Assembly (NCBI RefSeq): GCF_000025925.1
Contig: NC_014033.1
Location: forward strand, 240,001 to 272,000
DNA length: 32,000 bases
DNA from: Xylanibacter ruminicola 23
Lineage (GTDB): Bacteria > Bacteroidota > Bacteroidia > Bacteroidales > Bacteroidaceae
Direction: 5' to 3'
Position numbers and translations under genes: made by a program
The notes under the pieces: generated by a model
The model's input: the letters and a program-made list of their open reading frames with translations, nothing else
Told to the model about the DNA's origin: nothing
The model's database searches: none
In this document: in pieces, positions 12,551 through 29,724 of the stretch
How the letters are laid out: each line of letters begins with the position of its first letter
Position numbering within the stretch: the first letter of the stretch is position 1

Positions 12551-12652
12551 CTAAGCCCCGATGCACGATGTCGCGCCCAGGGCCGTTACAATCGCTGTAG
12601 CGATACTGGCAATCATCTGCACGATAAACTTTAATGTTTCTTTCTTTGTCAT
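12551..12652 (-). CDS. 33-aa mini-protein MTKKETLKFIVQMIASIATAIVTALGATSCIGA (small peptide partner of the HU-like gene)
   Basis: Hand-translated ATG...TAG ORF, not in the ORF track because it is under 60 aa. It lies directly downstream of the HU-like gene on the same strand. As I recall, NCBI labels this family 'smalltalk protein'; that recollection is unverified. Confidence 0.5.
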   Translation of the reverse strand: MTKKETLKFIVQMIASIATAIVTALGATSCIGA

Positions 12653-12656
12653 AGCT

Positions 12657-12691
12657 TTTAATGTTTAATGTTTAATGGTCAATGGTCAATG
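12657..12691 (-). repeat. five tandem heptamers (sense: CATTGAC x2, CATTAAA x3) 4 nt upstream of the mini-ORF start
   Basis: Read directly on the + strand: TTTAATG x3 (12657-12677) and GTCAATG x2 (12678-12691). Confidence 0.9.
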
Positions 12692-12695
12692 GATA

Positions 12696-12719: not shown

Positions 12720-13256
12720 TTAGTCTCCGATGGGCTCATTATGGTTTCCACCGCCACCGGTATTGCCACCAGTGTTTCCACCGGTATTACCACCGTTCGA
12801 TGGCTGGTCGGGATCCTCGATATCGCCGCTATCACCGCTGGTCACACGCTTCAGCACTTTGCCATCCTCGTCCAGGCAGGTAATCTGGATGCTGGTATTC
12901 TTCAGCTCGTCCTTAACGTCCACGTTAGGGGTAAAGATAATGCGACGAACACTGATCAATCCAGTCTTTACGTCCTCCAGGTTCTCAACGGCCTTACTGC
13001 GCACTCCGAATCGCATGGTACCCAGACCTGGCAGTGGTACTGAGTGACCCTCGGTGGCCCACGTACGGATTACTTCACCTGCAGCATCCCAAGCTGCCTT
13101 AATTACACCTGCAGAGATACCCGAGTGGGTGGCTGCCTCTGCGAACACTTTCTTCTCCTGGATAGGGCTATACAGCTCAGGACGCATAATGAATCGCTTA
13201 CCAGGTTTGTTGCCGATTTTAAGCTCTCGGCGCTGAGCAATTACTTTAATCGCCAT
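12720..13256 (-). CDS. Bacteroidales HU-related DNA-binding protein with a Gly/Asn/Thr-repeat C-terminal tail
   Basis: The N-terminal 120 aa (KPGKRFIMRPELYS...IRTWATEGHSVPLPGLGTMRFGVRS) match the HU-related family typical of Bacteroides/Prevotella. The tail is SNGGNTGGNTGGNTGGGGN. Confidence 0.75.
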   Translation of the reverse strand: MAIKVIAQRRELKIGNKPGKRFIMRPELYSPIQEKKVFAEAATHSGISAGVIKAAWDAAGEVIRTWATEGHSVPLPGLGTMRFGVRSKAVENLEDVKTGLISVRRIIFTPNVDVKDELKNTSIQITCLDEDGKVLKRVTSGDSGDIEDPDQPSNGGNTGGNTGGNTGGGGNHNEPIGD

Positions 13257-13441
13257 ACTTCTAAAATTTTTAATGGTTAATGTTTGATATTTTCAATAAT
13301 CTCGCTTTGCCGCCTTGGAGTGCAGATTTCAACCGCTATTAGTACTTTCAATTGTTACTATTAATGCGCGCAATTTCTAGATTTAATTCTCGCAATTTTT
13401 AGCCTTAATGCCGCTGCTCTTACTCTCTCAATTTGACAATG

Positions 13442-13449
13442 CAAAGGTA
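13442..13449 (-). promoter_or_regulatory. -7 promoter box (rc TACCTTTG) for the HU-like gene
   Basis: This is the only TAnnTTTG match upstream of 13256 on the minus strand. It implies a leader of about 180 nt with no ATG. Confidence 0.45.
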
Positions 13450-13528
13450 CGAAAAATTCAGCATATATACAAGCGTTTGTTCATTTTATTTTTAATTTAT
13501 TTCTACATAGATTTACCACTACCGAGCA

Positions 13529-13553
13529 CCTAACGTCCTAACGTTCTAACATT
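13529..13553 (+). repeat. CTAAC repeat block CCTAACGTCCTAACGTTCTAACATT
   Basis: Read directly. It shares CTAACGTCCTAAC with 21808-21820. Confidence 0.9.
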
Positions 13554-13595
13554 GCGATTTCTCAATTATCCCATCACCTATCAATACTCTCTATA

Positions 13596-13647
13596 AATAT
13601 ATATTATTATATTATATATTATAATATATAATATAATAATATATATT
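13596..13647. repeat. perfect 52-bp palindrome composed only of A and T
   Basis: Checked base by base about the centre at 13621/13622. All 26 pairs are complementary, and the symmetry breaks at 13595/13648. Confidence 0.95.
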
Positions 13648-13658
13648 CTAATAAGCAC

Positions 13659-13716
13659 GTTAGTTACTACCTAACAAAATACCAAATGTTAGTTTGTTAG
13701 GTGGTTAGATGGTTAG
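13659..13716. repeat. GTTAG repeat block (inverted relative to 13529-13553), including a 9-bp inverted repeat CCTAACAAA/TTTGTTAGG
   Basis: Read directly. 13685-13701 is the reverse complement of CCTAACAAACTAACATT at 21823-21839. The 9-bp stem is 13670-13678 with 13693-13701. Confidence 0.9.
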
Positions 13717-13724
13717 GTGGATTG

Positions 13725-14897
13725 CTAATACGTTAGTCCAAACTGCCAAAGGGGGATGATGTTGGCATGGCCTGTTTCGATATCGTCTTTCACTACGTAG
13801 CCTTGGGCTGCATTTTGTATCTGTTTCTGCTTCTTACTTTTTCCGCCCACCTCAAAGGTCTTGCCGTCTATTTCGAAATCGCTTATTCGTGAACTGATGA
13901 CATCAGTAGTTACACGCATCTGATTGTAGAAGAAAGTCTCGCGGATGTTGCCAATGTCGGTACTCTCATGTCCAAGTACATAGGCCAGGTTCGTGTTGTC
14001 AAGATATACTTTCTCTACCTTTCCTAAGCCACGTATGCCGCCAGTATCGTCGCGTAGTTGTCCTATCATACCAGCCTGTTCCATGTAGAGGAAGTAGTCG
14101 GGTAGCACGTTGCGACTTACACCTATAACTGTGGCCAACGACTCCATGACAGGTTTAAAGGGTACACTCTGTGCTATCACGGCCAGTAGCTTCTTTAGTT
14201 TGCGGCCTGTTGATGCGTTCATATTCGCATATTGGGGAATGTCTACCTCCATTGTTTGGTTGATAACCTGGCGCATACGCATCTCGTAGCCACCCTCGTT
14301 TGCAAATGGATAGTAGCCGTTTTTTAGATAATCCCTGAATAGTGGTAGAGGATGATTGATGGCATCAAGTTTCGCTTTATGCTCCAGGATATCGTTGATG
14401 GTATATACCGGGGCGTTTATGTTATGAAATAATGCCAGATATTCTCGGAAAGAAAGTCCCTGCATGGTATATATCAGCGTACGTCGGCTCAGGTCGGATG
14501 CTCCTTTTGTGATATCAAGTATGGATGAGCCTGTGAATCCAACCTTCAAGTCTGGATGAGAGTCATAGATGAGTTTCAATTCTCGCGACCAGTTCTCGTA
14601 TTTATGAATCTCGTCGATGAATATCTGCTCACCACCGTCTTTTACAAACTCATCTACAGTGGCGATAAGTGTGTGGGTTGAGAAATACAGATGGTCGGCA
14701 GCTACATATAGCATGTGCCGCTTGTCTCTGTTCTCCTTGATGTATTGCAGGATCATTGTTGACTTTCCCACACCACGTGGGCCAACAAGTCCAAACATTC
14801 TCGACTCCCAACTCACCTGATCGTACATATACCGATGGAATGTTGAAGTGGTTAACTTCAACTGACTCTCCATGAATTCAATAAGCGAAATATCCAT
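13725..14897 (-). CDS. AAA+ ATPase of the AAA_14/DUF4143 type
   Basis: Walker A is LVGPRGVGKST and Walker B is IFIDEIH. Length and C-terminal region are typical of DUF4143 ATPases. Start set at MDISLIEF (14897), since the ORF-track extension runs across the promoter and operators. Confidence 0.8.
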   Translation of the reverse strand: MDISLIEFMESQLKLTTSTFHRYMYDQVSWESRMFGLVGPRGVGKSTMILQYIKENRDKRHMLYVAADHLYFSTHTLIATVDEFVKDGGEQIFIDEIHKYENWSRELKLIYDSHPDLKVGFTGSSILDITKGASDLSRRTLIYTMQGLSFREYLALFHNINAPVYTINDILEHKAKLDAINHPLPLFRDYLKNGYYPFANEGGYEMRMRQVINQTMEVDIPQYANMNASTGRKLKKLLAVIAQSVPFKPVMESLATVIGVSRNVLPDYFLYMEQAGMIGQLRDDTGGIRGLGKVEKVYLDNTNLAYVLGHESTDIGNIRETFFYNQMRVTTDVISSRISDFEIDGKTFEVGGKSKKQKQIQNAAQGYVVKDDIETGHANIIPLWQFGLTY

Positions 14898-14918
14898 AAT
14901 CGTTATATTTTTTTGCTG

Positions 14919-14926
14919 CAAATATA
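14919..14926 (-). promoter_or_regulatory. -7 promoter box (rc TATATTTG) of the ATPase gene
   Basis: A TAnnTTTG match lies 22 nt upstream of the ATG at 14897. Confidence 0.5.
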
Positions 14927-14932
14927 ATAAAA

Positions 14933-14983
14933 ATGCACTATGGTAGTGCATAAAACAATAGAAAAGTGCACTAAAATAGTGCA
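14933..14983. promoter_or_regulatory. two copies of the palindrome TGCACTA-N3-TAGTGCA (operator-like)
   Basis: The copies are at 14934-14950 (arms extend to 8 bp) and 14967-14983, with centres 33 bp apart. The proximal copy abuts the -7 box. Confidence 0.5.
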
Positions 14984-15098
14984 ATTTAACGATTTTTTAC
15001 GGAAAACCTTTGAAAATGAACTTTCTTGCTTAGCAAGCCCATGTGCTAAATTGTCTTAATATATTTCCTGCATCTTTTGTTAGGTGCAGGATTATTTG

Positions 15099-15232: not shown

Positions 15233-16309
15233 ATGGAAACAAAAGACATAAAACAACTTCAGTATGAAAACAAAAAACTGAAGAAGGAGTATGGTAGGCT
15301 GCTTGAAGAGATTCAGCGCTTATGGAGATTTAAGAAGGAAACAAAGCTGTTTTCTTCTGAGTATATGAAACGTCTGCAGCAGACTGACCTTAGGAAAAAG
15401 GTGTTTGAAGGTACTGACTTTACTATTTTTAAAGGCATTAATGAAAGCGATAGCAGGCAGTTTATGCTTTACAATATAGAAAAGATAATTGGTCAGCAGC
15501 CAAATGGTGATGCAGCCCAGAAGTACGTATCGCAAATATATGGTGAGAAAAAACTGTTGGATTTAGACGAACCATTCCCGTTTATACCTATGGAGAATGT
15601 GGATGGCTGGCTTCTTGATATGGTAAGGCTGATGGGATGCTTGATGGGGCAGAACCCTTGGGGAAAGTGCTTTTCGTTAAGATGGCTCAGCTCTAGGTTT
15701 GAGGCTGGAACTGGAGACGATCCGTATCAGTTCTCACCAGAAAACGAAGAACTTTTGTATTGGCTGGAGGTTACGGAATATAGAAGAATAGCTGCGCTTG
15801 TCGCCAAGATGGTAGAAAGTATAACTATGCTCGAATACCAGAGAATATCTTCGGCTGTTTATGATTATATATGGGAGAAACTACATGGCTTTATCCCTGA
15901 TTGGGCCAATGTAGACCAATGTAATTCGTATATCAATAGCCTGCTTGATATAATAAATAATGTAAACGCCCATATCAAGGAAGGTGCACAACGTGGGCTC
16001 TGTATCGAAGAAGTTGGGCTGATTGACTCACTTTGGGGTGATGTGAATCATACCTACCATAAAGACTATTTAGCTGCAACTAAGGAGATTTGGCAGAAGA
16101 TAAAGCCTGTTCGTGATAGTTTTTGTGATGGCGGCAGGAATCGAGAGAATTATCAATTATTCGTTAACGATATGCTTAAAATTGCTCTGCCGATTGCAGA
16201 GCAATACAATCTTGACATGGAACTTGACGATGAACATAGTCTACCGTTGAGTTATCTTAAGTATTGGTTGGAATCAATTTATTGTTACGATGATTACCGC
16301 CTTGAATAA
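15233..16309 (+). CDS. orphan protein A (358 aa) with an N-terminal coiled coil
   Basis: Long ORF with no competing frame. AT-rich: hand count 35 G+C in 15241-15340, against 56 in 7021-7120. No motif recognised. Confidence 0.7.
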   Translation: METKDIKQLQYENKKLKKEYGRLLEEIQRLWRFKKETKLFSSEYMKRLQQTDLRKKVFEGTDFTIFKGINESDSRQFMLYNIEKIIGQQPNGDAAQKYVSQIYGEKKLLDLDEPFPFIPMENVDGWLLDMVRLMGCLMGQNPWGKCFSLRWLSSRFEAGTGDDPYQFSPENEELLYWLEVTEYRRIAALVAKMVESITMLEYQRISSAVYDYIWEKLHGFIPDWANVDQCNSYINSLLDIINNVNAHIKEGAQRGLCIEEVGLIDSLWGDVNHTYHKDYLAATKEIWQKIKPVRDSFCDGGRNRENYQLFVNDMLKIALPIAEQYNLDMELDDEHSLPLSYLKYWLESIYCYDDYRLE

Positions 16310-17135
16310 AGAACCACTAATACCACGTGGCGACTATTCGCCAGTAGTACGTGATAGGATTAACCGGTTAAAGCAAGATGCCGATCGGTTATTCTCATTG
16401 GGTGCAGTTCGAAAGCGATGTCAGCAGGCTTTAGTGCAGTTTTACGCCAATCTTAAGCCAGAACCATACGTAGATCTGCGCACTCAGCTATCTAACAATA
16501 GGGAGTATCGCTTTGCGCAAAGTCTTACGCTTACCTATAGATCTACCAACGATAGACTGGTACAATGGGCAAAGGGGTGCATGAGCGAATATCTGCTGCA
16601 AGAAGCTATTGAGGAGCGCGAGCGGTTGATTGAGAATTTTGCGCGTATTAAACTTGCCAGCCGCTGGTATCAGATGAAAGACGATGATGAGGCTTGGCGT
16701 GTGTTCTCGCAAAACATACCCTATGACGATGCCGACAGGGAGAAAGAAATAGATGAGTTTTTTGAAACGCTGGATATCCTTTGTATCCTGACAGATGTGA
16801 TTAACGGCCATGCTGCAGAGTACGGACTTGATGTAGACTACCATACGCGTACTTTGACGGGAGTTTTAGCCTCAGAAAAAGCGGTGAAATACTGGAAACA
16901 ACTGGTAGAACAGCAGTTTGTTGACCAGCACTACATGCTATTGGCAAGCACTACTCGCCAGCAAGCAATGTATATTGCAGAACTATTTGCAGAAACGCTG
17001 GAACTGGAAGACAAATGGAAAACTTTTGAAGACTTCTGGGGTATCAACAATCTGGCCCAGGAGAAGTATAAATGCACAGAGTTAGGCAAGTTACCTGCCC
17101 GCTCTGATGTTATCGATATGATTTTCAAAGATTAA
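16290..17135 (+). CDS. orphan protein B (281 aa), start overlapping A by 20 nt
   Basis: The ATG at 16290 lies inside the end of A, which suggests translational coupling. A terminator follows. No motif recognised. Confidence 0.7.
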   Translation: MITALNKEPLIPRGDYSPVVRDRINRLKQDADRLFSLGAVRKRCQQALVQFYANLKPEPYVDLRTQLSNNREYRFAQSLTLTYRSTNDRLVQWAKGCMSEYLLQEAIEERERLIENFARIKLASRWYQMKDDDEAWRVFSQNIPYDDADREKEIDEFFETLDILCILTDVINGHAAEYGLDVDYHTRTLTGVLASEKAVKYWKQLVEQQFVDQHYMLLASTTRQQAMYIAELFAETLELEDKWKTFEDFWGINNLAQEKYKCTELGKLPARSDVIDMIFKD

Positions 17136-17162
17136 TATAACTGCCTGATAATCAATATAAGT

Positions 17163-17210
17163 GTCCCCTATATAGTCCCTACTATAGCCCCTATTATAGC
17201 CCCTATATAG
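17163..17210 (+). repeat. four tandem 12-mers: GTCCCCTATATA, GTCCCTACTATA, GCCCCTATTATA, GCCCCTATATAG
   Basis: Read directly. The last copy forms the 5' arm of the terminator hairpin. Confidence 0.9.
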
Positions 17211-17221
17211 GGGCTTTTTTT
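17198..17221 (+). terminator. intrinsic terminator of the A-B operon
   Basis: AGCCCCTA (17198-17205) pairs with TAGGGGCT (17208-17215), followed by seven T. Confidence 0.75.
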
Positions 17222-17234
17222 GTTTTAATAGCCG

Positions 17235-17242
17235 TACCTTTG
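17235..17242 (+). promoter_or_regulatory. -7 promoter box TACCTTTG
   Basis: TAnnTTTG immediately after the terminator. It overlaps the ORF-track start at 17240, which favours the ATG at 17342. Confidence 0.45.
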
Positions 17243-17341
17243 CCGTCGATAAGAATTTTATGTTTAATCCGAGTGGGGTGGGAGTCCTCTGAGGTGAAAA
17301 GCTGCAGCAATCATGCTCTTCTCACAAAACACTTGGAAAAG

Positions 17342-17824
17342 ATGAAACAAGTAGTATTGCGTATCGACGACGCAGCTTTTGAGAAGTTTATGGGTATGGT
17401 AGATCTATGCCCGATGGTTGAGGTGCTGAATGTTTGCAGCACTGGCGACAAGAAACTTACCATTGATACCTATGTGGCATCGGCCATACGCGAAATGCGA
17501 CAGGCCCTGGCTTTTAAGAACCCCTGCGACTATGCTTACCTGATGGTGGCTATGAACGAGAGCGTGGTAAAAGGATTGCCCTTTTTCTATACCCCCAAAG
17601 ATTTTATCGACTATATGCACCAATCTGATTTTGATAATCTGCCTGGTCGCACCACCATCTACGATACCATAGCTAAGGTAAAAGGAAAGTACCCCGACTG
17701 GACGTTTACCGATAGCCCCAAAGCCAGCGAGGCACTGCGCAGAAAGAACTTGGTGAAGCGATTTTTGAGTGCCTTTATGAGGGCTCAAAACAATAAGTCG
17801 GACGGTTGGTCGGACGAAGCTTAA
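17342..17824 (+). CDS. hypothetical protein (160 aa)
   Basis: The start MKQVVLRIDD lies downstream of the promoter box. The antisense 197-aa ORF looks non-protein-like. Confidence 0.6.
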   Translation: MKQVVLRIDDAAFEKFMGMVDLCPMVEVLNVCSTGDKKLTIDTYVASAIREMRQALAFKNPCDYAYLMVAMNESVVKGLPFFYTPKDFIDYMHQSDFDNLPGRTTIYDTIAKVKGKYPDWTFTDSPKASEALRRKNLVKRFLSAFMRAQNNKSDGWSDEA

Positions 17825-17848
17825 AGGTGTCGGACGATACGTCGGACA
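17797..17848 (+). repeat. four direct copies of GTCGGAC(G/A) with 12/20/12-nt spacing
   Basis: The copies start at 17797, 17809, 17829 and 17841. They straddle the stop codon at 17822-17824. Confidence 0.9.
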
Positions 17849-18015
17849 ATAGAAAATAAAGCCATCGTGGGGTGAATTTTTATTGCGAACTTTGCCGATG
17901 AAATCAGCGAGAACAGGCTGCACCTCAGCAATTCGAGCGAGCTCGATTGCATTCGGTTTGCACTGTCCTTGCATCGTCGAAAGGAAAAAACGACGCAAAT
18001 TTAAAATTAAAAGTT

Positions 18016-18336
18016 ATGGTAAGACAAAGTATTTTTGAAAAGAGAAAAGGCGGTCAGTTCATCTTCGAAGATGAAGACCTGATGAGAGTACAGTGCTTGG
18101 AACATGATGCCGAGAGCGTGATGTGCCAACTGGAGAACAAATTAAGCCAACCGTTGCTGTTTATGCTTAACCAACAGCTGTTAGGGTTCAGCAGCCAGAT
18201 GCAACAAGAACTGGCAATGGATATGGTTGACTATGTGTGCGACGATGTGATACGAATGACGGGATGCCCATCGGCTGATTACGTATTGGAAACGTGTTAC
18301 GCATGGATAGAGGAAGAGCAGGGAGGTGTAGCGTGA
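18016..18336 (+). CDS. hypothetical protein (106 aa)
   Basis: ATG at 18016 after an A-rich leader. The stop TGA overlaps the next ATG (TGATG). Confidence 0.55.
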   Translation: MVRQSIFEKRKGGQFIFEDEDLMRVQCLEHDAESVMCQLENKLSQPLLFMLNQQLLGFSSQMQQELAMDMVDYVCDDVIRMTGCPSADYVLETCYAWIEEEQGGVA

Positions 18337-18566
18337 TGGAACAGATAGTTAATGCCTATCACATTAAGGTGAACAAATGCTGTGCATCGTGCAAGCATAA
18401 GGAAAGCCAGAATGATGGTACAAGGCAGTGCACTAAGACGGGGCAGATAGTAGAGGCGAAATCGGTATGCCCTGAGTGGGAAATGAACGACTGTCTGCGT
18501 AATGCAGGCTTGCAAAAGGGAGCCGTGGTTCGCCTGAAAGGAACTACAGAAATAGTAATATGTTAA
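18336..18566 (+). CDS. small Cys-rich protein (76 aa), possible zinc ribbon
   Basis: KCCASCKH ... RQCTKTG ... SVCPEW gives a four-or-more-Cys pattern. The start is coupled to the preceding stop. Confidence 0.55.
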   Translation: MEQIVNAYHIKVNKCCASCKHKESQNDGTRQCTKTGQIVEAKSVCPEWEMNDCLRNAGLQKGAVVRLKGTTEIVIC

Positions 18567-18597
18567 ACATTAAACATTAAAGATTAAACATTAAAGA
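18563..18597 (+). repeat. five tandem heptamers TTAAACA/TTAAAGA (CATTAAA register) ending 3 nt before the ATG at 18601
   Basis: Read directly. The unit and orientation relative to the downstream start match 12657-12677. Confidence 0.9.
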
Positions 18598-18600
18598 GTT

Positions 18601-18912
18601 ATGAAGAAAATGACAAAAATTGAAAAGATGGTGCGCATGTTTAGCGGCACCGACGATATTGAAAAGCAGTTTGCTAATGATGTACAGACTTGGGGTGATG
18701 AGTTTACAGCTATAGCCGATAAGCTCGACATCCGTAACCCCTGGGATCAGGCTGTGCTGGTGGCTATTTTTACCAACATGCTGGCATGTATAACGGTTAA
18801 CGCCATGTTTGATGGTGTGAACTTGGAGAAGGCTATACGTGATAACTATTATGATGCCTTGAAGGAATACAAGAAACAGGCTGCAAGGGAAATTGCGAAA
18901 GGTAACATCTAA
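18601..18912 (+). CDS. hypothetical protein (103 aa)
   Basis: Clean ORF on the same strand as its neighbours. No motif recognised. Confidence 0.55.
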   Translation: MKKMTKIEKMVRMFSGTDDIEKQFANDVQTWGDEFTAIADKLDIRNPWDQAVLVAIFTNMLACITVNAMFDGVNLEKAIRDNYYDALKEYKKQAAREIAKGNI

Positions 18913-19014
18913 GAAAGGTAAGTAAATAACCGAGTCGAAGTGTGGTGGAGGAAGTCTACGTAGTGAAAATGGCCAAATTCTAACACAACCCTTCACTCAT
19001 CAATTCGACAAGTT

Positions 19015-19372: not shown

Positions 19373-21811
19373 ATGTTTTGCTATCAGAAAAACTTTAGTA
19401 ACCCCACCTTGCCGGTAGATGAGACTCAGTTCTGGGCTCTTGTTAAGGCCACCAAGTGGAACGAGAATATCGATAAGTATCGCGAAACGGGCGATGCAGC
19501 GTTGAAACGCAAACTGCCTGCATTCATCTTTCAGGCTACTTTCGACGAAACAACATCGGCCAAAGGTAGATTAGGTGCCTGGCGCAAACAGGCAGCCACC
19601 CGCTTAACGGGCCTGGTGGTGATGGATCTCGACCATATCGAGAACCCGTTAACCCTGTATCAGGGCTGGATAGATAAAGGCCTCGACCTGAAGGCATTGG
19701 GCATTGTGCTCGTGTATATCACACCCAGTGGAAAGGGATTGAAGATTGTGTTCAAGGCCCGACTGGATTGGGGCAACCTGATTGATAATCAGCACGCTAT
19801 GGCCAAACTGCTGGGCGACGAGGTGGTAGTGGATGAGGCCTGCAAGGACTCGTCGAGAATGAGTTACATTTGCAAATATACCGATATTTTATTTATTGAT
19901 AAAGAACTGTTTAGTTATGAGAACCAAGAGTATGCTGAGCGATATACTGCTCTATATCGAGACGGTCGCTCACAGAGCGAGAGTGCGAATCTTCCAGAAA
20001 CATCAACTCCCATCGAGCATAGTAACGAACCTGTAATGTGGCGTGGATATGATGTACAGTGTATTATTGATAAGCGCTATGGCGATAAGCTGCCATGCCG
20101 AGAGGATAGAAACAGACATAACGAAAGCCTCAAGTTGGCCTCTGATCTGCTCACACTACTCGACGGCGATAGGGTTGATGTGCAGCGAGTGCTCGAAAAG
20201 CAGACGTGGGTACAGGAACTCATCAGCGAGGGCGAAAGGGTGGAGAATACCATATCGAGTGCCGTTGAGCACAAACGCGATAAGGAGAAGAAATTCCTTA
20301 ATCAGCTGCCCAGTAAGCCCATGCTTGAGGCTATCCAGGAGGTTACGGGTAAGACGTGCCAGGAGATTACGAAGGGCACGAAAGCGTCAACGGCGGCGGT
20401 GCTGAAGGATGATACCATGGCACAGATGCTGTGGGAATGGGGTGAAGAGATTGAGGCCCTGAGTGAGTACTATCCAGCCCTGAAGGATGTGTGCAAGGGC
20501 TTGAAGCACAACCAGTACCCAGCGGCCCTGTTTGTAGCAGGCGGCCTGTTGATGACGCTGATGACACGTTGCACGTACCGCTTTTACCATCGACCAGAAG
20601 AGTTGCGACGATTGAACAACTCAACGCTGATAATTGGCGATCCTGCCAGTGGTAAGAGTTTTGCCACCCGCTTGTTTAAACTGCTGGCAGCACCTATTAT
20701 TGAGGCTGATAAAGTAGGTAAAGAGGCTATTAATGCCTATCGCGAGCAGATGCGCACCAAGGGCGCTAACAAGGAGAAGCCTAAGAAACCTAAGGTTATC
20801 GTACGTGTACACCCTGCACGAACCAGTAATGCCCAGTTTATACAGGACATGGTGAACAGTGTAGAGGAGGTGGATGGCGAGCCCATGCAGCTGCACATGC
20901 TGACGTTTGATACCGAGTTGGATAACACTATCTGTGTACAGAAGGGTGGTAGCTGGATCGACAAGCAGAGCATGGAACTGAAGGCGTTCCATAACGAGGA
21001 AGATGGACAGGCATACTCGAACAACGACTCTATCCTGCAGGATTTCTTCGTGACCTGGAACTACATCTACACAGGTACGCCCATCGCGCTGAAAAAGAAG
21101 GTGAACGCGCAGAACTTCGGCTCAGGACTGGCTACCCGACTGACCTGCATTCCGCTGCCTGCTACCAACTTTAAGATGATGACGCGCGAAAGTAATGTGG
21201 ATTACGATAGCGACAACCGCTTAAAGGAATGGGCTAAGAAGCTGGACCGTACCAAGGGCGAACTCTCAGTTCAGAAGCTGGTAGATGAACTCTACGACTG
21301 GACAGCCCGTCGAATGGCCGATGCAGAAGAGAACGACAGCAAAGCCGACGAGATGCTGCTGAAACGTTGTGCCTACCATGGCTTGAACTTCTCGGCTCCG
21401 TTTATCGTGATGCGCCACTGGGGCGATCTGCATCAGGAAGGCAACTACTGGTGTGGTACATTCGAGACGGACGAAATAGATTGGCGACTGGCTGAACTGA
21501 TAGTAAACATACAGTATGCCTGCCAGCGATACTACTTTGGTGCGATGGCCGAAGCCTACTTCGACAACAAACTGAAGGATGCCAGCGTAAACGTGCAGCG
21601 TCGTCAGAAAACCTACGAAGGTTTCGAGCGACTGCCCGATGTGTTTACAACCGACGATGTGGTTCGTTGCTTCCAGCTAAAGAGTGCTGCTACAGCCTAT
21701 ATGCGAATAAGTCGTTTGACCAAGGATCGACTAATAGAAAAGGCCGAAGACTATGTTGAAGATGGATGCGCCAAGGTGCGCTATCGTAAAACCGGTCTGC
21801 TCATGATCTAA
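19373..21811 (+). CDS. VirE-N/BT4734-like N-terminal domain plus P-loop NTPase (primase-helicase-like replication protein)
   Basis: The N-terminus PAFIFQATFDE...RLTGLVVMDLDHIENP fits the VirE_N/BT4734-like type. Walker A is GDPASGKSF at about residue 420. The 812-aa architecture is common in Bacteroidales cassettes that carry HU-like genes. Confidence 0.75.
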   Translation: MFCYQKNFSNPTLPVDETQFWALVKATKWNENIDKYRETGDAALKRKLPAFIFQATFDETTSAKGRLGAWRKQAATRLTGLVVMDLDHIENPLTLYQGWIDKGLDLKALGIVLVYITPSGKGLKIVFKARLDWGNLIDNQHAMAKLLGDEVVVDEACKDSSRMSYICKYTDILFIDKELFSYENQEYAERYTALYRDGRSQSESANLPETSTPIEHSNEPVMWRGYDVQCIIDKRYGDKLPCREDRNRHNESLKLASDLLTLLDGDRVDVQRVLEKQTWVQELISEGERVENTISSAVEHKRDKEKKFLNQLPSKPMLEAIQEVTGKTCQEITKGTKASTAAVLKDDTMAQMLWEWGEEIEALSEYYPALKDVCKGLKHNQYPAALFVAGGLLMTLMTRCTYRFYHRPEELRRLNNSTLIIGDPASGKSFATRLFKLLAAPIIEADKVGKEAINAYREQMRTKGANKEKPKKPKVIVRVHPARTSNAQFIQDMVNSVEEVDGEPMQLHMLTFDTELDNTICVQKGGSWIDKQSMELKAFHNEEDGQAYSNNDSILQDFFVTWNYIYTGTPIALKKKVNAQNFGSGLATRLTCIPLPATNFKMMTRESNVDYDSDNRLKEWAKKLDRTKGELSVQKLVDELYDWTARRMADAEENDSKADEMLLKRCAYHGLNFSAPFIVMRHWGDLHQEGNYWCGTFETDEIDWRLAELIVNIQYACQRYYFGAMAEAYFDNKLKDASVNVQRRQKTYEGFERLPDVFTTDDVVRCFQLKSAATAYMRISRLTKDRLIEKAEDYVEDGCAKVRYRKTGLLMI

Positions 21812-21839
21812 CGTCCTAACATCCTAACAAACTAACATT
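21808..21839 (+). repeat. CTAAC repeat block CTAACGTCCTAACATCCTAACAAACTAACATT
   Basis: Read directly. It starts at the primase-like stop codon and relates to 13529-13553 (direct) and 13685-13701 (inverted). Confidence 0.9.
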
Positions 21840-21896
21840 AAGAAAAAGGAACAGATAGTACAGTTAAATAGTAAAGCAAACCTCTCCCAGCACTTC

Positions 21897-22319
21897 GTGC
21901 TCGAGGAGTTCACCAGGAGCAAGTATCCTGAGGTGTATAACATTCCCAGTCACGAGGTTATTGCAAATCTGAAGCGGTTGTGTGAGTGGTTGGAAGTGCT
22001 GCGCAAGCGTTATAATGATAAATATGGAGAGGGAGAAGATCCTATCCGTATTAACTCTGGGTATCGCAGTCCGCAGTTGAATCGCAAAGTGGGGGGAGCC
22101 CCCACCAGTAATCACTTAACGGGCTGTGCGGTGGATATTCGCACCAATGGTATGGAGCAGGCAATAGAATATGCAGCCATATTGATAGCCTATGCCAATG
22201 AATCGGCACAGGACTATGATGAACTGCTGATAGAAAAAAATCGCTATGGTGCCGTGTGGTTGCACTTCGCCGTGCGCCCCAAAGATAATCGTAGAAAAGT
22301 AGCGTTTATACAAGCGTAG
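21897..22319 (+). CDS. peptidase M15 (zinc D-Ala-D-Ala carboxypeptidase/endolysin-like); start codon uncertain
   Basis: NSGYRSPQLNRKVGGAPTSNHLTGCAVD plus a later WLHFAV gives the H..D..H zinc ligands of the M15 family. The frame is open from 21828, but the only canonical start is the GTG at 21897. Confidence 0.75.
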   Translation: MLEEFTRSKYPEVYNIPSHEVIANLKRLCEWLEVLRKRYNDKYGEGEDPIRINSGYRSPQLNRKVGGAPTSNHLTGCAVDIRTNGMEQAIEYAAILIAYANESAQDYDELLIEKNRYGAVWLHFAVRPKDNRRKVAFIQA

Positions 22320-25798: not shown

Positions 25799-27340
25799 TT
25801 ACTTAGCATAAGCTACAGAACGTGTTTCGCGGATAACGGTAATCTTTACCTGACCAGGATAGGTCATCTCGTTCTGAATCTTTGTAGCGATATCGGCGCT
25901 GAGGGCCTCGCTCTCGGCGTCGTTCATCTTATCGGCACCTACAATCACACGGAGCTCGCGACCAGCCTGGATGGCGTAGGTCTTGGTAACACCGGGATAG
26001 CTCATAGCGATGGCCTCGAGGTCGTTCAAACGCTTGATGTAAGCCTCTACAATCTCGCGACGTGCACCAGGACGGGCACCTGAGATGGCGTCGCACACCT
26101 GTACGATAGGAGCCAGCAGAGTCTGCATCTCCATCTCGTCGTGGTGAGCACCGATGGCATTGCAGATATCGGGCTTCTCCTTGAACTTCTCGGCAATCTT
26201 AGCACCGTAGATAGCGTGTGGCAACTCGCTCTCCTCGTCGGGCACCTTACCGATATCGTGCAGCAATCCGGCACGCTTAGCCTTCTTTGGATTCAAGCCA
26301 AGCTCGCTGGCCATAACGGCACACAGGTTGGCTGTTTCGCGCGCGTGCTGCAGCAGATTCTGACCGTATGATGAGCGGTACTTCATCTTACCGATGATGC
26401 GGATGAGCTCGGGGTGGAGACCGTGAACACCCAGGTCGATAGCGGTGCGCTTACCAGTCTCGATAATCTCGTTGTCGAGCTGCTTCTTAACCTTGGCAAC
26501 TACCTCCTCGATACGTGCGGGGTGGATACGGCCATCGCTCACCAGCTGGTGGAGTGCCAGGCGGCAAACCTCACGGCGAACAGGATCGAAACCAGAGATA
26601 ACGATTGCCTCAGGAGTATCGTCGACAACGATTTCAACACCTGCGGCGGCCTCGAGTGCGCGGATGTTACGACCCTCGCGACCGATGATGCGACCCTTTA
26701 CCTCGTCGTTCTCGATGTGGAACACGCTTACCGAGTTCTCGATAGCGGTTTCGGTAGCTACACGCTGAATGGTCTGGATAACTATCTTCTTGGCCTGTGC
26801 GTTAGCGTTCAGCTTGGCCTCGTCCATAATCTCGTTGATGTAGCTGGCAGCGGCAGTCTTAGCCTCGTCCTTCATCGACTCAACCAGGCGGTTCTTAGCC
26901 TCTTCGGCGCTGAGACCTGATACCTCCTCGAGCTTCTCGCGCTCCTTGAGCTGCATCTTCTCGAGCTCCTCGGCCTTTACAGAGAGCAGCTTCTTCTCGT
27001 TCTCGATGCGCTGCTGCTGATTGTCGAGTTCGTTCTTACGGCGGCCCAGTTCTTCCTGGCGCTGGTTGAGCGAAATCTCGCGCTGCTTGAGTTTGTTCTC
27101 ACTCTGCTGGATGTGCTGGTTGCGCTGCTGCACCTCCTTCTCCAGCTCGCTCTTCTTGTTGATGAATTTTTCCTTCACCTCGAGCAGTTTTTTCTCTTTG
27201 ATGACATCGGCCTGCTTGGTGGCAGTGTCGATCATTTCATTGTATTTCCCCTTCAGAACGTAGCGGAATACAAGGTATCCGCAGACTCCTCCTAATGCGA
27301 GGGCGCCTGCAGCGATCAGTAGTACAATAATGATATCCAT
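25799..27340 (-). CDS. rny: ribonuclease Y
   Basis: N-terminal TM segment, long coiled coil, KH domain ([15 protein letters not shown]) and HD domain (LLHDIGK). Confidence 0.9.
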
Positions 27341-28687: not shown

Positions 28688-28735
28688 AAAAATCTATTTA
28701 TAATTACAAATCGACTGCAAAATTAATAAAAATTA

Positions 28736-28812
28736 GGCACGGATTACGCGGATTAACACAGATTAATAATAATTTTATATAAAAAATCCGTGTAATCCGC
28801 GTAATCCGTGCC
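28736..28812. repeat. 77-bp palindromic element: 20-bp perfect arms GGCACGGATTACGCGGATTA/TAATCCGCGTAATCCGTGCC around an AT-rich loop
   Basis: The arms are 28736-28755 and 28793-28812, with imperfect pairing continuing inward. Internal GGATTA(C/A)(G/A)C units recur. Confidence 0.9.
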
Positions 28813-28820
28813 AAAAACTG

Positions 28821-28851: not shown

Positions 28852-29724
28852 ATGAAAGGAATTGTTTTAGCAGGTGGTTCAGGTACACGCCTTTACCCCA
28901 TTACTAAGGGCATCAGTAAGCAGCTGATACCTATTTTCGACAAACCGATGATTTACTACCCCATATCGGCACTGATGCTGGCTGGTATCCGCGAGATTCT
29001 GATTATCTCGACTCCACACGACCTGCCAGGCTTTAAGCGCTTGCTGGGCGACGGATCGGATTACGGTGTGCATTTTGAGTATGCCGAGCAGCCATCACCC
29101 GATGGACTGGCACAGGCATTTATCATAGGCGAGAAGTTTATTGGCGACGACAGTGCTTGCTTGGTGCTGGGCGATAACATCTTCTACGGTTCGGGCTTTA
29201 CAGGCCTGCTGAAGGAGAGTGTTGAGAATGCCGAAAAGCGCAATCAGGCCACTGTGTTCGGTTATTACGTGAACGACCCCGAGCGCTACGGTGTGGCTGA
29301 GTTTGATGCCGAGGGTAACTGCCTGAGCATTGAGGAGAAGCCCGAGCACCCCAAGTCGAACTACGCCGTGGTAGGTCTTTATTTCTACCCCAACAGCGTG
29401 GTTGAGATTGCCAAGCACATCAAGCCATCGGCTCGTGGTGAGCTGGAGATTACCACCGTTAACCAGGAGTATCTGGCACAGAAGAAACTGAAGGTGCAGA
29501 CCTTGCAGCGTGGCTTTGCCTGGTTGGATACAGGTACACACGACTCGCTCTCGGAGGCTTCGACCTTTATCGAGGTGATTGAGAAGCGCCAGGGCCTGAA
29601 GGTGGCTTGCTTGGAGGAGATTGCCTTTAAGCGTGGCTGGATAAGCAAGGAGAAGCTTGAGGAAGTGGCCAAACCGATGGCCAAGAACGATTACGGCAAG
29701 TACTTGTTAAGCTTAGTAAAATAA
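28852..29724 (+). CDS. rfbA: glucose-1-phosphate thymidylyltransferase
   Basis: [18 protein letters not shown] and full-length colinearity with RmlA-type enzymes. Confidence 0.9.

Follow-up and report, generated by a model that had tools for sequence, protein, structure and literature searches.

A perfect A/T-only palindrome between opposed repeat arrays at a HU-HIG locus of Xylanibacter ruminicola 23, a candidate docking site for a primase-helicase

The 32,000-nt stretch of the Xylanibacter ruminicola 23 genome analysed here (contig NC_014033.1, positions 240,001 to 272,000; called the window, in whose own numbering coordinates are given) carries a perfect 52-bp palindrome made only of A and T and flanked by short tandem repeats of opposite polarity. 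It lies between the 3' end of an AAA_14 ATPase gene (13725-14984, minus strand) and a HU-HIG family gene that codes a 178-aa protein (12720-13256, minus strand; PF18291). The question raised by this locus is which protein reads the repeats and what the palindrome between them is for. The whole element spans 13527-13724 and has a partner array, termed D, at 21800-21840. It is real and non-random, and is one member of a conserved but sequence-variable family of cis-elements. Its repeats change together with the DNA-reading tip of a primase-helicase, and the element is on this ground likeliest the docking site of that enzyme. That the arrays are binding sites of the winged helix of the primase-helicase, and that the dyad with its A/T palindrome would be an origin-like site for loading and melting, is a proposal that we consider about evenly balanced between right and wrong.

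Architecture of the window element

The palindrome occupies 13596-13647 and consists of two 26-nt arms without a loop. It is enclosed in a 56-bp run that is 100% A/T (13592-13647) and coincides with the 60-bp stretch of lowest GC content in the window. Among the 50-bp duplexes of the window it is likewise the least stable one, with -39.1 kcal/mol compared to a mean of -70.0 (standard deviation 5.4) and a second lowest value of -49.8 kcal/mol for 50-bp stretches. The palindrome is the candidate centre for unwinding or cruciform formation.

The two flanking arrays are built from units of a 5-nt core and a 3-nt variable spacer, with a strict 8-bp period in both. The promoter-proximal iterons, named R in the orientation of the HU gene, lie at 13527-13553 and read CAC-CTAAC-GTC-CTAAC-GTT-CTAAC-ATT, with three CTAAC cores starting at 13530, 13538 and 13546. 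The distal iterons, named L, lie at 13685-13724 and comprise four AAT-GTTAG units, whose GTTAG cores start at 13688, 13696, 13704 and 13712, plus a degenerate fifth unit; the set stops 1 bp short of the ATPase stop codon. A lone GTTAG is found also at 13659 and at 13732, the latter within the ATPase gene, and one inverse CTAAC unit starts at 13671. When up to two mismatches are allowed, the array pattern GTTAGN3GTTAGN3GTTAG has 7 matches in the window and an expectation of 0.12 from shuffled sequence. Segment 13527-13553 is an inverted copy of 13685-13711, the two forming a 27-nt imperfect inverted repeat, 131 bp apart, that is 78% complementary and whose mismatches fall in the 3-nt spacers.

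The 35-45-bp spacers that separate the arrays from the palindrome are not complementary to each other, and the symmetry is confined to the arrays and the palindrome. The spacer on the side of the proximal iterons (13554-13595) has a fixed orientation across loci. The one on the side of the distal iterons (13648-13684) holds the single GTTAG at 13659, the CTAAC at 13671 and one partner of a 9-bp stem, formed by CCTAACAAA (13670-13678) and TTTGTTAGG (13693-13701). As single-stranded DNA, the element region folds better than its own shuffles (z = -5.7). About 80 bp downstream of the proximal iterons, at 13442-13449 on the minus strand, the sequence TACCTTTG matches the Bacteroidota -7 promoter motif TAnnTTTG and is presumably the -7 box of the HU gene; conservation among all HU loci starts there. 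A scan of the window against Rfam at gathering score gives no matches, no DnaA box TTWTNCACA is found within 13200-13800, and the terminator scan lists nothing at the element.

An initial annotation of this DNA had described the palindrome with the same limits, the three CTAAC units on its left, the GTTAG-dominated block on its right with the 9-bp stem, and the neighbourhood of the ATPase, HU-like and primase-like genes. All of these are confirmed, the repeats lying far beyond chance. It had also attributed dyad symmetry to the whole 190 bp, which holds for the arrays and the palindrome and fails for the asymmetric spacers with their fixed orientation. This asymmetry and the third array at 21800-21840 had been overlooked.

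Recurrence of the element at HU-HIG loci

The element was compared among 80 HU-HIG loci (72-99% identity, with many paralogues per genome) taken from contigs representing one genome per species. Upstream sequence reaches 600 bp or more in 63 of these loci, and 48 of the 63 feature a perfect AT-rich palindrome (arms of 12-26 and a loop of 0-4 nucleotides) at -600 to -250 of the HU gene; elsewhere in 1.19 Mb no such palindrome occurs. The loci hold 31 distinct palindrome sequences. Most of the 15 loci without a perfect palindrome keep the element with an imperfect or slightly shorter one, and two have none. Opposed iteron sets arranged as in the window are found in about 50 related loci, and rumen Prevotella genomes show this layout again with other repeat sequences.

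Read in the orientation of the HU gene, these loci follow a common plan. It starts with the L array of 3-4 units of 7-8 bp, followed by a cap (ATT, ATTAAG or GTTTT), a spacer of about 40-50 bp and the palindrome. The second half is composed of a spacer of about 35-45 bp, the mirrored cap and the R array, an inverted L, after which come about 80 bp, the TACCTTTG -7 box, a leader of about 210 nt and the HU gene. The flanking arrays are inverted copies of each other and their 7-8-bp units are locus-specific. In 48 of 50 loci G exceeds C in the left spacer, read on the HU-sense strand, i.e. the orientation of the interior is fixed. An invertible segment was considered and rejected on account of this fixed orientation and of the lack of a recombinase gene nearby.

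The initial annotation would have counted an absent or degenerate palindrome in related cassettes as refutation; instead the palindrome stays perfect through mirrored substitutions. The palindromes of the window and of L018 differ at positions 13 and 14 and at the mirror positions 39 and 40, and the 26-mers of L052 and L072 differ at positions 13 and 14, their two central mirror positions. The arms may be held identical either by selection or by arm-to-arm correction. Decay of the palindrome does occur, as seen from about ten loci where it is imperfect.

The same HU protein of 178 aa, 100% identical, sits behind CTAAC, GTTGC, GTAAC or TTACAG arrays on different contigs. In L003 the arrays are those of the window and enclose a different perfect 52-bp palindrome, and in L002 four GTTGC units face four GCAAC units across a 38-bp A/T palindrome. 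TTACRG and CYGTAA units with a 7-bp period flank a 42-bp palindrome of L007 (21-nt arms, 95% A/T), while L006 has a single array of four GTAAC units and no palindrome. Variation among HU proteins is limited to a low-complexity tail and the amino terminus is conserved. The HU protein, which the initial annotation had proposed as a possible ligand of the repeats, was rejected as their reader on the basis of these identical proteins behind four array types and of a variability restricted to the tail. Conservation of the cores of the window and GTTGC types together with free 3-nt spacers points to reading by a protein and not to pairing of L with R. Such pairing, as an RNA or single-stranded DNA stem, is unlikely for the window type, in which the cores match and the 3-nt spacers do not.

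Homology between elements of the same type found in different contexts starts at the outer edge of L (-460, -462, -467) and continues to about +460 of the HU gene, beyond which their sequences are unrelated. The window and L002 have a common sequence only from -210 onward, a mosaic that is consistent with exchange between paralogues. The arrays adjoin stop codons, L that of the ATPase gene and D overlapping that of the primase-helicase gene. In L002-L004 the edge of an inserted ATPase_2 gene is marked by a CTAAC array that stands alone and has the matching cap. The whole unit of L array plus spacer is duplicated in tandem in L079 (-1153 to -293) and in L095 (-443 to -200), yielding successive GTTGCAG or CGCAGATT arrays, which suggests unequal exchange at the arrays.

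The HU module, with the element at its 5' edge, includes also a 33-aa ORF (open reading frame) of the DUF6486 ("smalltalk") family downstream of the HU gene (12551-12652, minus strand; PF20096 in L001). The leader of the HU gene (13257-13449, minus strand, about 190-210 nt) is about 95% conserved across loci with unrelated upstream elements, has no matching Rfam family and may be a structured 5' untranslated region. Heptad repeats precede both start codons of the module on the minus strand: CCATTGA CCATTGA CCATTAA ACATTAA ACATTAA at 12656-12692, directly before that of smalltalk/DUF6486, and AACATTAACCATTAAAAA at 13257-13290, directly before that of HU. Three to six copies of CATTA-, AACAT- or AATTG-type heptads occupy both corresponding places of related loci, and these repeats may be translation-initiation or copy-number-variable elements. 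The HU protein gave no match in a PDB sequence search or in the plasmid collection. A metagenome scan with this single protein yielded only 16 loci, at 39-44% identity except for one short partial match at 78%.

Repeats of another kind are present between housekeeping genes of three genomes. These are dyads of three ACAGAG(N2) units facing three CTCTGT(N2) units, with flanking T/A runs, found relative to the HU start codon at +8009 to +8090 in L011, -3061 to -2985 in L041 and +6085 to +6180 in L073. They look like bidirectional terminators or dispersed REP-like (repetitive extragenic palindromic) repeats of 8-bp tandem units.

The third array and the primase-helicase

Array D (21800-21840) is a solo set of four CTAAC units with an 8-bp period followed by ATTAAG, and repeats R in direct orientation together with its cap. 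It extends across the stop codon of gene 19373-21811 (plus strand), whose product, the candidate initiator, has a BT4734-like AEP (archaeo-eukaryotic primase) domain in its amino terminus and weak matches to phage primase/helicase families (PHROGs). Directly after D comes a gene for an M15 peptidase or endolysin-like protein (21897-22319, plus strand; phrog_894, endolysin).

Upstream sequences were searched with three divergent primase-helicase types. Of the 49 loci whose upstream sequence extends for 5 kb or more, 24 have a gene of these types upstream of HU. It is invariably coded on the opposite strand, 0.3-7 kb from the element, which is linked more tightly to the HU gene than to the primase gene. 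A D array occupies the 25-60-bp gap between the primase-helicase and hydrolase genes in 13 of about 20 loci, and its core is the one of the locus to which it belongs. At least ten different D cores were found, among them GTTAG, GTCAT, CTGTCAA, GGGAC, CTGTAA, CTGAAA, GTCAC, GTCACAAATTCC and CTGTAT. The placement of D after the primase-helicase gene is found also in metagenome and viral contigs, and a cell-wall-hydrolase-like gene, from three unrelated families, comes next in all nine D-array loci examined. Array sites several kb apart match within a locus and differ between loci, as expected from a shared reader or from sequence exchange between the sites. In L109 a D array of core GCGGCA matches an A/T palindrome with a TGCCG array 5 kb off, and this element precedes a DUF1016 gene instead of a HU gene.

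Two D-array regions have an unusual organization. Three repeat families are stacked within 90 bp before the next gene in L108 (7639-7727), where a D array of two to three CCTAACAC units is followed by four GTTTAC(R) units (7-bp period) and by four GTTTAATA units (8-bp period). At about -5400 of L052 the primase-helicase ORF runs into the hydrolase-like ORF in a single frame of 908 aa; either a fusion or a frameshift that sequencing introduced at the D array may account for this.

No part of the primase-helicase that still aligns evolves faster than its last ~60 residues. They are coded in the window by 21629-21808 (plus strand) and are predicted to form a winged helix, the candidate reader of the iterons. 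The AlphaFold model of the last 159 residues has a mean pLDDT (predicted local distance difference test) of 83.9, rising above 90 in the final 60 residues, whose predicted fold is strand-helix-helix-beta-hairpin. Winged-helix regulators such as YodB, MepR/MarR, PadR, Stf76 and Fur predominate among the best Foldseek matches in the PDB, with weak E-values (0.014-0.1) and probabilities near 1. Among protein pairs with about 90% identity over the 200 residues that come before, identity in the last 60 is 88-93% when the repeat core is the same and 46-71% when it differs.

In about 20 loci the predicted recognition helix and the repeat core vary together, the pairs being drawn from homologues on independent metagenome and viral contigs that have an array after the stop codon. 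In proteins of the window type the helix AYMRISR or AHVKIGR goes with core CTAAC, ARMKIKR (two samples) with TGTACC, ARKKV(H/T)R (two samples) with GCGGCA, ARGKISR with GGCGCGTC, ARTRVVR with CRCAGC and ARVKIYR with CCGTATCA. A second type of protein pairs N(S/A)xxKI(I/V)SRW (three loci) with RTGACA, ALRKIxSRW with GTGAC, GIRNIIMRW with GTCCC, ALRNIITRW with GCCAC and AMRMIISRW with GTAAC. The match between the core of D and that of the distant L and R arrays is free of the confounding by linkage and shared descent that affects the pairing of the helix with the adjacent D array.

Stand-alone ORFs of 150-280 aa correspond to the carboxyl-terminal part of the primase-helicase, winged helix included, and have a D array after them and often a hydrolase gene (L109 5137-5781, L110 3255-3899, L114 1955-2413, L108 7001-7633 and L025 about -1170 to -670). 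They may be decay products or free iteron-binding proteins.

The primase gave no match in the phage collection, and the viral-contig scan with the L070-type primase was likewise negative. Scans of viral contigs with the other primase types gave matches only at the edges of predicted prophages and revealed no small circular element. Four IMG/VR contigs (L115, L116, L117 and L118) carry primase-helicase cassettes at the extreme edges of prophages predicted in isolate genomes; the primase and endolysin-like genes may draw cassette DNA into viral predictions.

Cargo ORFs at 15233-18996 gave no family in Pfam, NCBIfam or PHROGs, no ribbon-helix-helix domain was found in the cassette ORFs with these three collections, several small ORFs lacking annotation, and neither the window nor the cargo yielded a recombinase gene. 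The housekeeping flanks comprise a RecF-like (SMC_N) ATPase gene (670-1797) and the RNase Y gene (25799-27340). The only tRNA gene given by the tRNA scan of the window, tRNA-Pro at 214-298, is unrelated to the element. A second dyad is found in the window at 28735-28815, where GGCACGGATTACGCGGATTAACACAGATT, a 25-bp AT-rich centre and AATCCGTGTAATCCGCGTAATCCGTGCC lie just upstream of a TAtcTTTG promoter box and of an rmlA-like nucleotidyl transferase gene (28852-29724). Its GGATTAACACAGATTAAT motif is present again at 1808-1826, between the RecF-like and TPR genes.

Candidate functions of the element

The mechanism that we propose would start with an initiator formed by a BT4734-type primase, a DUF3987-type helicase and a carboxyl-terminal winged helix. 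This winged helix would read the 5-nt cores (CTAAC/GTTAG) set 8 bp apart. Three cores on one side and four on the other, in opposite orientation, suggest two assemblies facing each other across the A/T-only palindrome. The palindrome, as the place of the region that is easiest to open, would melt or extrude as a cruciform under negative supercoiling, and would then admit helicase and primase to the single strands. The HU-HIG protein may bend or stabilise the complex. The solo D array would be a half-site that may act in autoregulation or in gating of the hydrolase gene after it, or could be left over from a "rep-then-ori" order. The initial annotation had suggested an origin-like site for the primase-helicase. 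Its architecture, conserved without conservation of sequence, and its partner protein, pointed to by the D core match and by the core that tracks the predicted recognition helix, stand by comparison between loci, whereas its function in replication is a conditional proposal.

The element is rated, by analogy, as a new variant in Bacteroidota of the iteron and AT-rich origin architecture of Staphylococcus aureus pathogenicity islands (SaPIs). In SaPIs 6-12 penta- or hexanucleotide iterons are positioned immediately downstream of rep, at least two of them on each side of a central AT-rich region and in opposite directions; they are read by a winged helix in the carboxyl-terminal domain of Rep, a self-loading helicase that melts the origin without ATP, and SaPI5 codes a fused Pri-Rep protein (PMC9371898). 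The window element shares with the origins of SaPIs and other phage-inducible chromosomal islands (PICIs) the 5-nt cores, three and four opposed, around a centre that is 100% A/T. Also as in SaPIs, an array (here D) comes directly after the candidate initiator ORF, the predicted winged helix that would read the iterons is variable and its specificity would differ between elements, and the window protein is a fused primase-helicase like the one of SaPI5. Unlike in SaPIs, the ORF is followed by a half-site only; the full dyad, placed at the 5' edge of the HU-HIG gene, is found 0.3-8 kb off, and its centre is a perfect A/T palindrome without a loop, which PMC9371898 does not report for SaPIs. The primase also differs, being a BT4734-type AEP with a DUF3987 helicase, a combination described as a replication module of mobile elements (PMC11724360). 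The cassette departs further from SaPIs in having no integrase, packaging genes or sign of excision, and in its many copies per genome, half of them without a nearby initiator gene.

Other systems share parts of this layout. Simian virus 40 (SV40) large T antigen binds GAGGC pentamers, and oriS of herpes simplex virus (HSV) has an A+T palindrome flanked by UL9 boxes. The origins of these viral helicase-initiators resemble the element in the opposed short boxes around an A+T-rich, partly palindromic site for a double hexamer, but belong to other protein families and hosts and are not known to have 8-bp tandem arrays or an associated HU gene. Iteron plasmid origins (R6K, pPS10, RK2, P1), whose Rep proteins also autoregulate through inverted repeats, have likewise iterons and an AT-rich unwinding element. 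Their iterons, however, are 17-22 bp long and run in one direction, accompanied by DnaA boxes and 13-mers, whereas the window units are of 8 bp and opposed. Cooperative operator arrays, among them MetJ met-boxes, the omega heptads of pSM19035 and ParG sites, typically have a 7-8-bp period. As in the element, their contiguous units, direct and inverted, immediately precede promoters, and several sites share one protein. They differ in being read by ribbon-helix-helix proteins and are not known to have a long A/T palindrome at the centre.

Several observations weigh against an origin-like site. For about half of the HU-linked elements, no primase-helicase gene is found up to 10 kb away. In the window some 8 kb separate the full dyad from the primase-helicase ORF, which is adjoined by a half-site alone. 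Genomes carry many copies of the element with differing cores, at least seven in one assembly. The window has no integrase gene and has housekeeping genes on both sides of the cassette, and no excised or circular form was seen. Covariation between helix and core is partly confounded by linkage and shared ancestry, since D adjoins the region coding the carboxyl-terminal domain. Distant HU-HIG genes keep the inverted arrays and have sometimes a G+C-containing central hairpin in place of the A/T palindrome, which suggests that the centre is selected for hairpin or cruciform formation as well as for melting. The element keeps a constant distance to the HU promoter in about 58 of 63 loci, as a regulatory operator would too, and similar inverted arrays are found at a few unrelated promoters and terminators. 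ORFs with the carboxyl-terminal domain only are common and would suit a repressor role.

A transcriptional operator is the main rival, a real if doubtful possibility. The winged helix of the primase-helicase, or the proteins that consist of the carboxyl-terminal domain only, would act on L and R to control the HU-HIG promoter and on D to control the hydrolase gene, while the palindrome would form the apex of a DNA loop, either flexible or extruded as a cruciform; HU-HIG may hold this loop, much as HU holds that of the GalR repressosome. The constant distance to the promoter, the 7-8-bp period, the position of D 25-90 bp upstream of the hydrolase gene, the frequency of carboxyl-terminal-only ORFs and the elements that remain where no full primase-helicase is nearby agree with this role, as does the similar dyad at 28735-28815 upstream of the unrelated rmlA-like gene. 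It leaves unexplained a perfect, loop-less palindrome of 100% A/T and up to 52 bp that is the least stable duplex of the region. The reading protein is moreover fused to a primase and a helicase, and the layout fits origins bound by self-loading helicases. Operator and origin are in any case compatible, as plasmid Rep proteins commonly both regulate and initiate. Control of the HU-HIG gene by its own product is a separate and improbable alternative. HU proteins prefer cruciform and junction DNA, and HU-HIG could bind the extruded cruciform, sense supercoiling and control its own promoter, the arrays being accessory or structural. The HU-HIG gene is the most constant partner of the palindrome, whose perfect symmetry is maintained via mirrored changes, and the central hairpin is retained at distant HU-HIG genes even when it is not A/T only. 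Autoregulation by HU-HIG does not account for locus-specific cores that match the distant array on the primase side and the carboxyl-terminal domain, for identical HU proteins behind different arrays, or for the L109 element, which shares its core with the D array of L109 and precedes the DUF1016 gene.

The arrays could instead be recombination or attachment sites at the ends of exchangeable modules, an explanation of low probability. The direct D and R arrays would flank an excisable segment made of the primase-helicase gene, the cargo, the L array and the palindrome, the latter being a by-product or a resolution site. In the circle resulting from exchange between D and R, the primase ORF would be followed at once by the full dyad. 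The sharp start of homology at the outer edge of L, the arrays next to the ATPase and primase stop codons, the copying of R by D down to the inner cap and the solo CTAAC array at the edge of the inserted ATPase_2 gene are in line with such exchange. It is opposed by the absence of a recombinase gene, by the fixed interior orientation and by more than 100 loci among which no empty site, circular junction or inverted arrangement is found; tandem cores, free spacers and covariation of the carboxyl-terminal domain favour binding by the primase-helicase. A bidirectional terminator or insulator between the ATPase and HU genes, the insulator having been put forward in the initial annotation, is most improbable, and so is a functionless foldback insertion of the type of a miniature inverted-repeat transposable element (MITE). 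The element does come directly after the ATPase stop codon, its single strand folds better than shuffles, and array-type dyads with T runs are found between convergent housekeeping genes of related genomes. A terminator is hard to reconcile with an A/T-only stem that has no G+C-rich stem followed by a T run, and with an upstream neighbour that has either orientation across loci. A MITE would be expected to scatter, while the element keeps a fixed position relative to the HU gene and is found nowhere else in the 1.19 Mb; no flanking target-site duplication is apparent in the junction sequences viewed, in which no systematic search was made. An insulator does not explain the arrays, and neither reading explains the covariation results.

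HU-HIG genes are expanded in Bacteroidota, with a function that is unexplained, and the same applies to cassettes with BT4734/DUF3987 primase-helicases. The element ties both groups of genes together through a shared cis-element with locus-specific repeats, and leads to a proposed protein-DNA pairing between the recognition helix of the predicted winged helix and a 5-nt core. A survey in 2017 found rampant expansion of HU-HIG genes and almost no conserved gene linkage (PMC5499826). The linkage described here is non-operonic, which may be why that survey missed it, and our literature searches gave no paper describing the upstream element or the cassette as a unit.

On a broader and rather unlikely view, the Bacteroidales cassettes of HU-HIG, primase-helicase and cell-wall hydrolase genes would form an extensive and so far unrecognised family, made up of chromosomal replicons without integrase or of elements akin to phage satellites. 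Their initiator-iteron specificities would diversify like incompatibility groups, with the perfect A/T palindrome as cruciform unwinding centre and the rapidly diversifying HU-HIG paralogues as origin cofactors. Such a dedicated role, if true, would explain the enigmatic HU-HIG expansion. Should the element be an operator, it would reveal an unusual regulon run by a primase-helicase. If it is an origin, gut and rumen Bacteroidales would hold many silent replicons with a built-in specificity code, which would matter for gene amplification, the biology of phage satellites and vector design in Prevotella.

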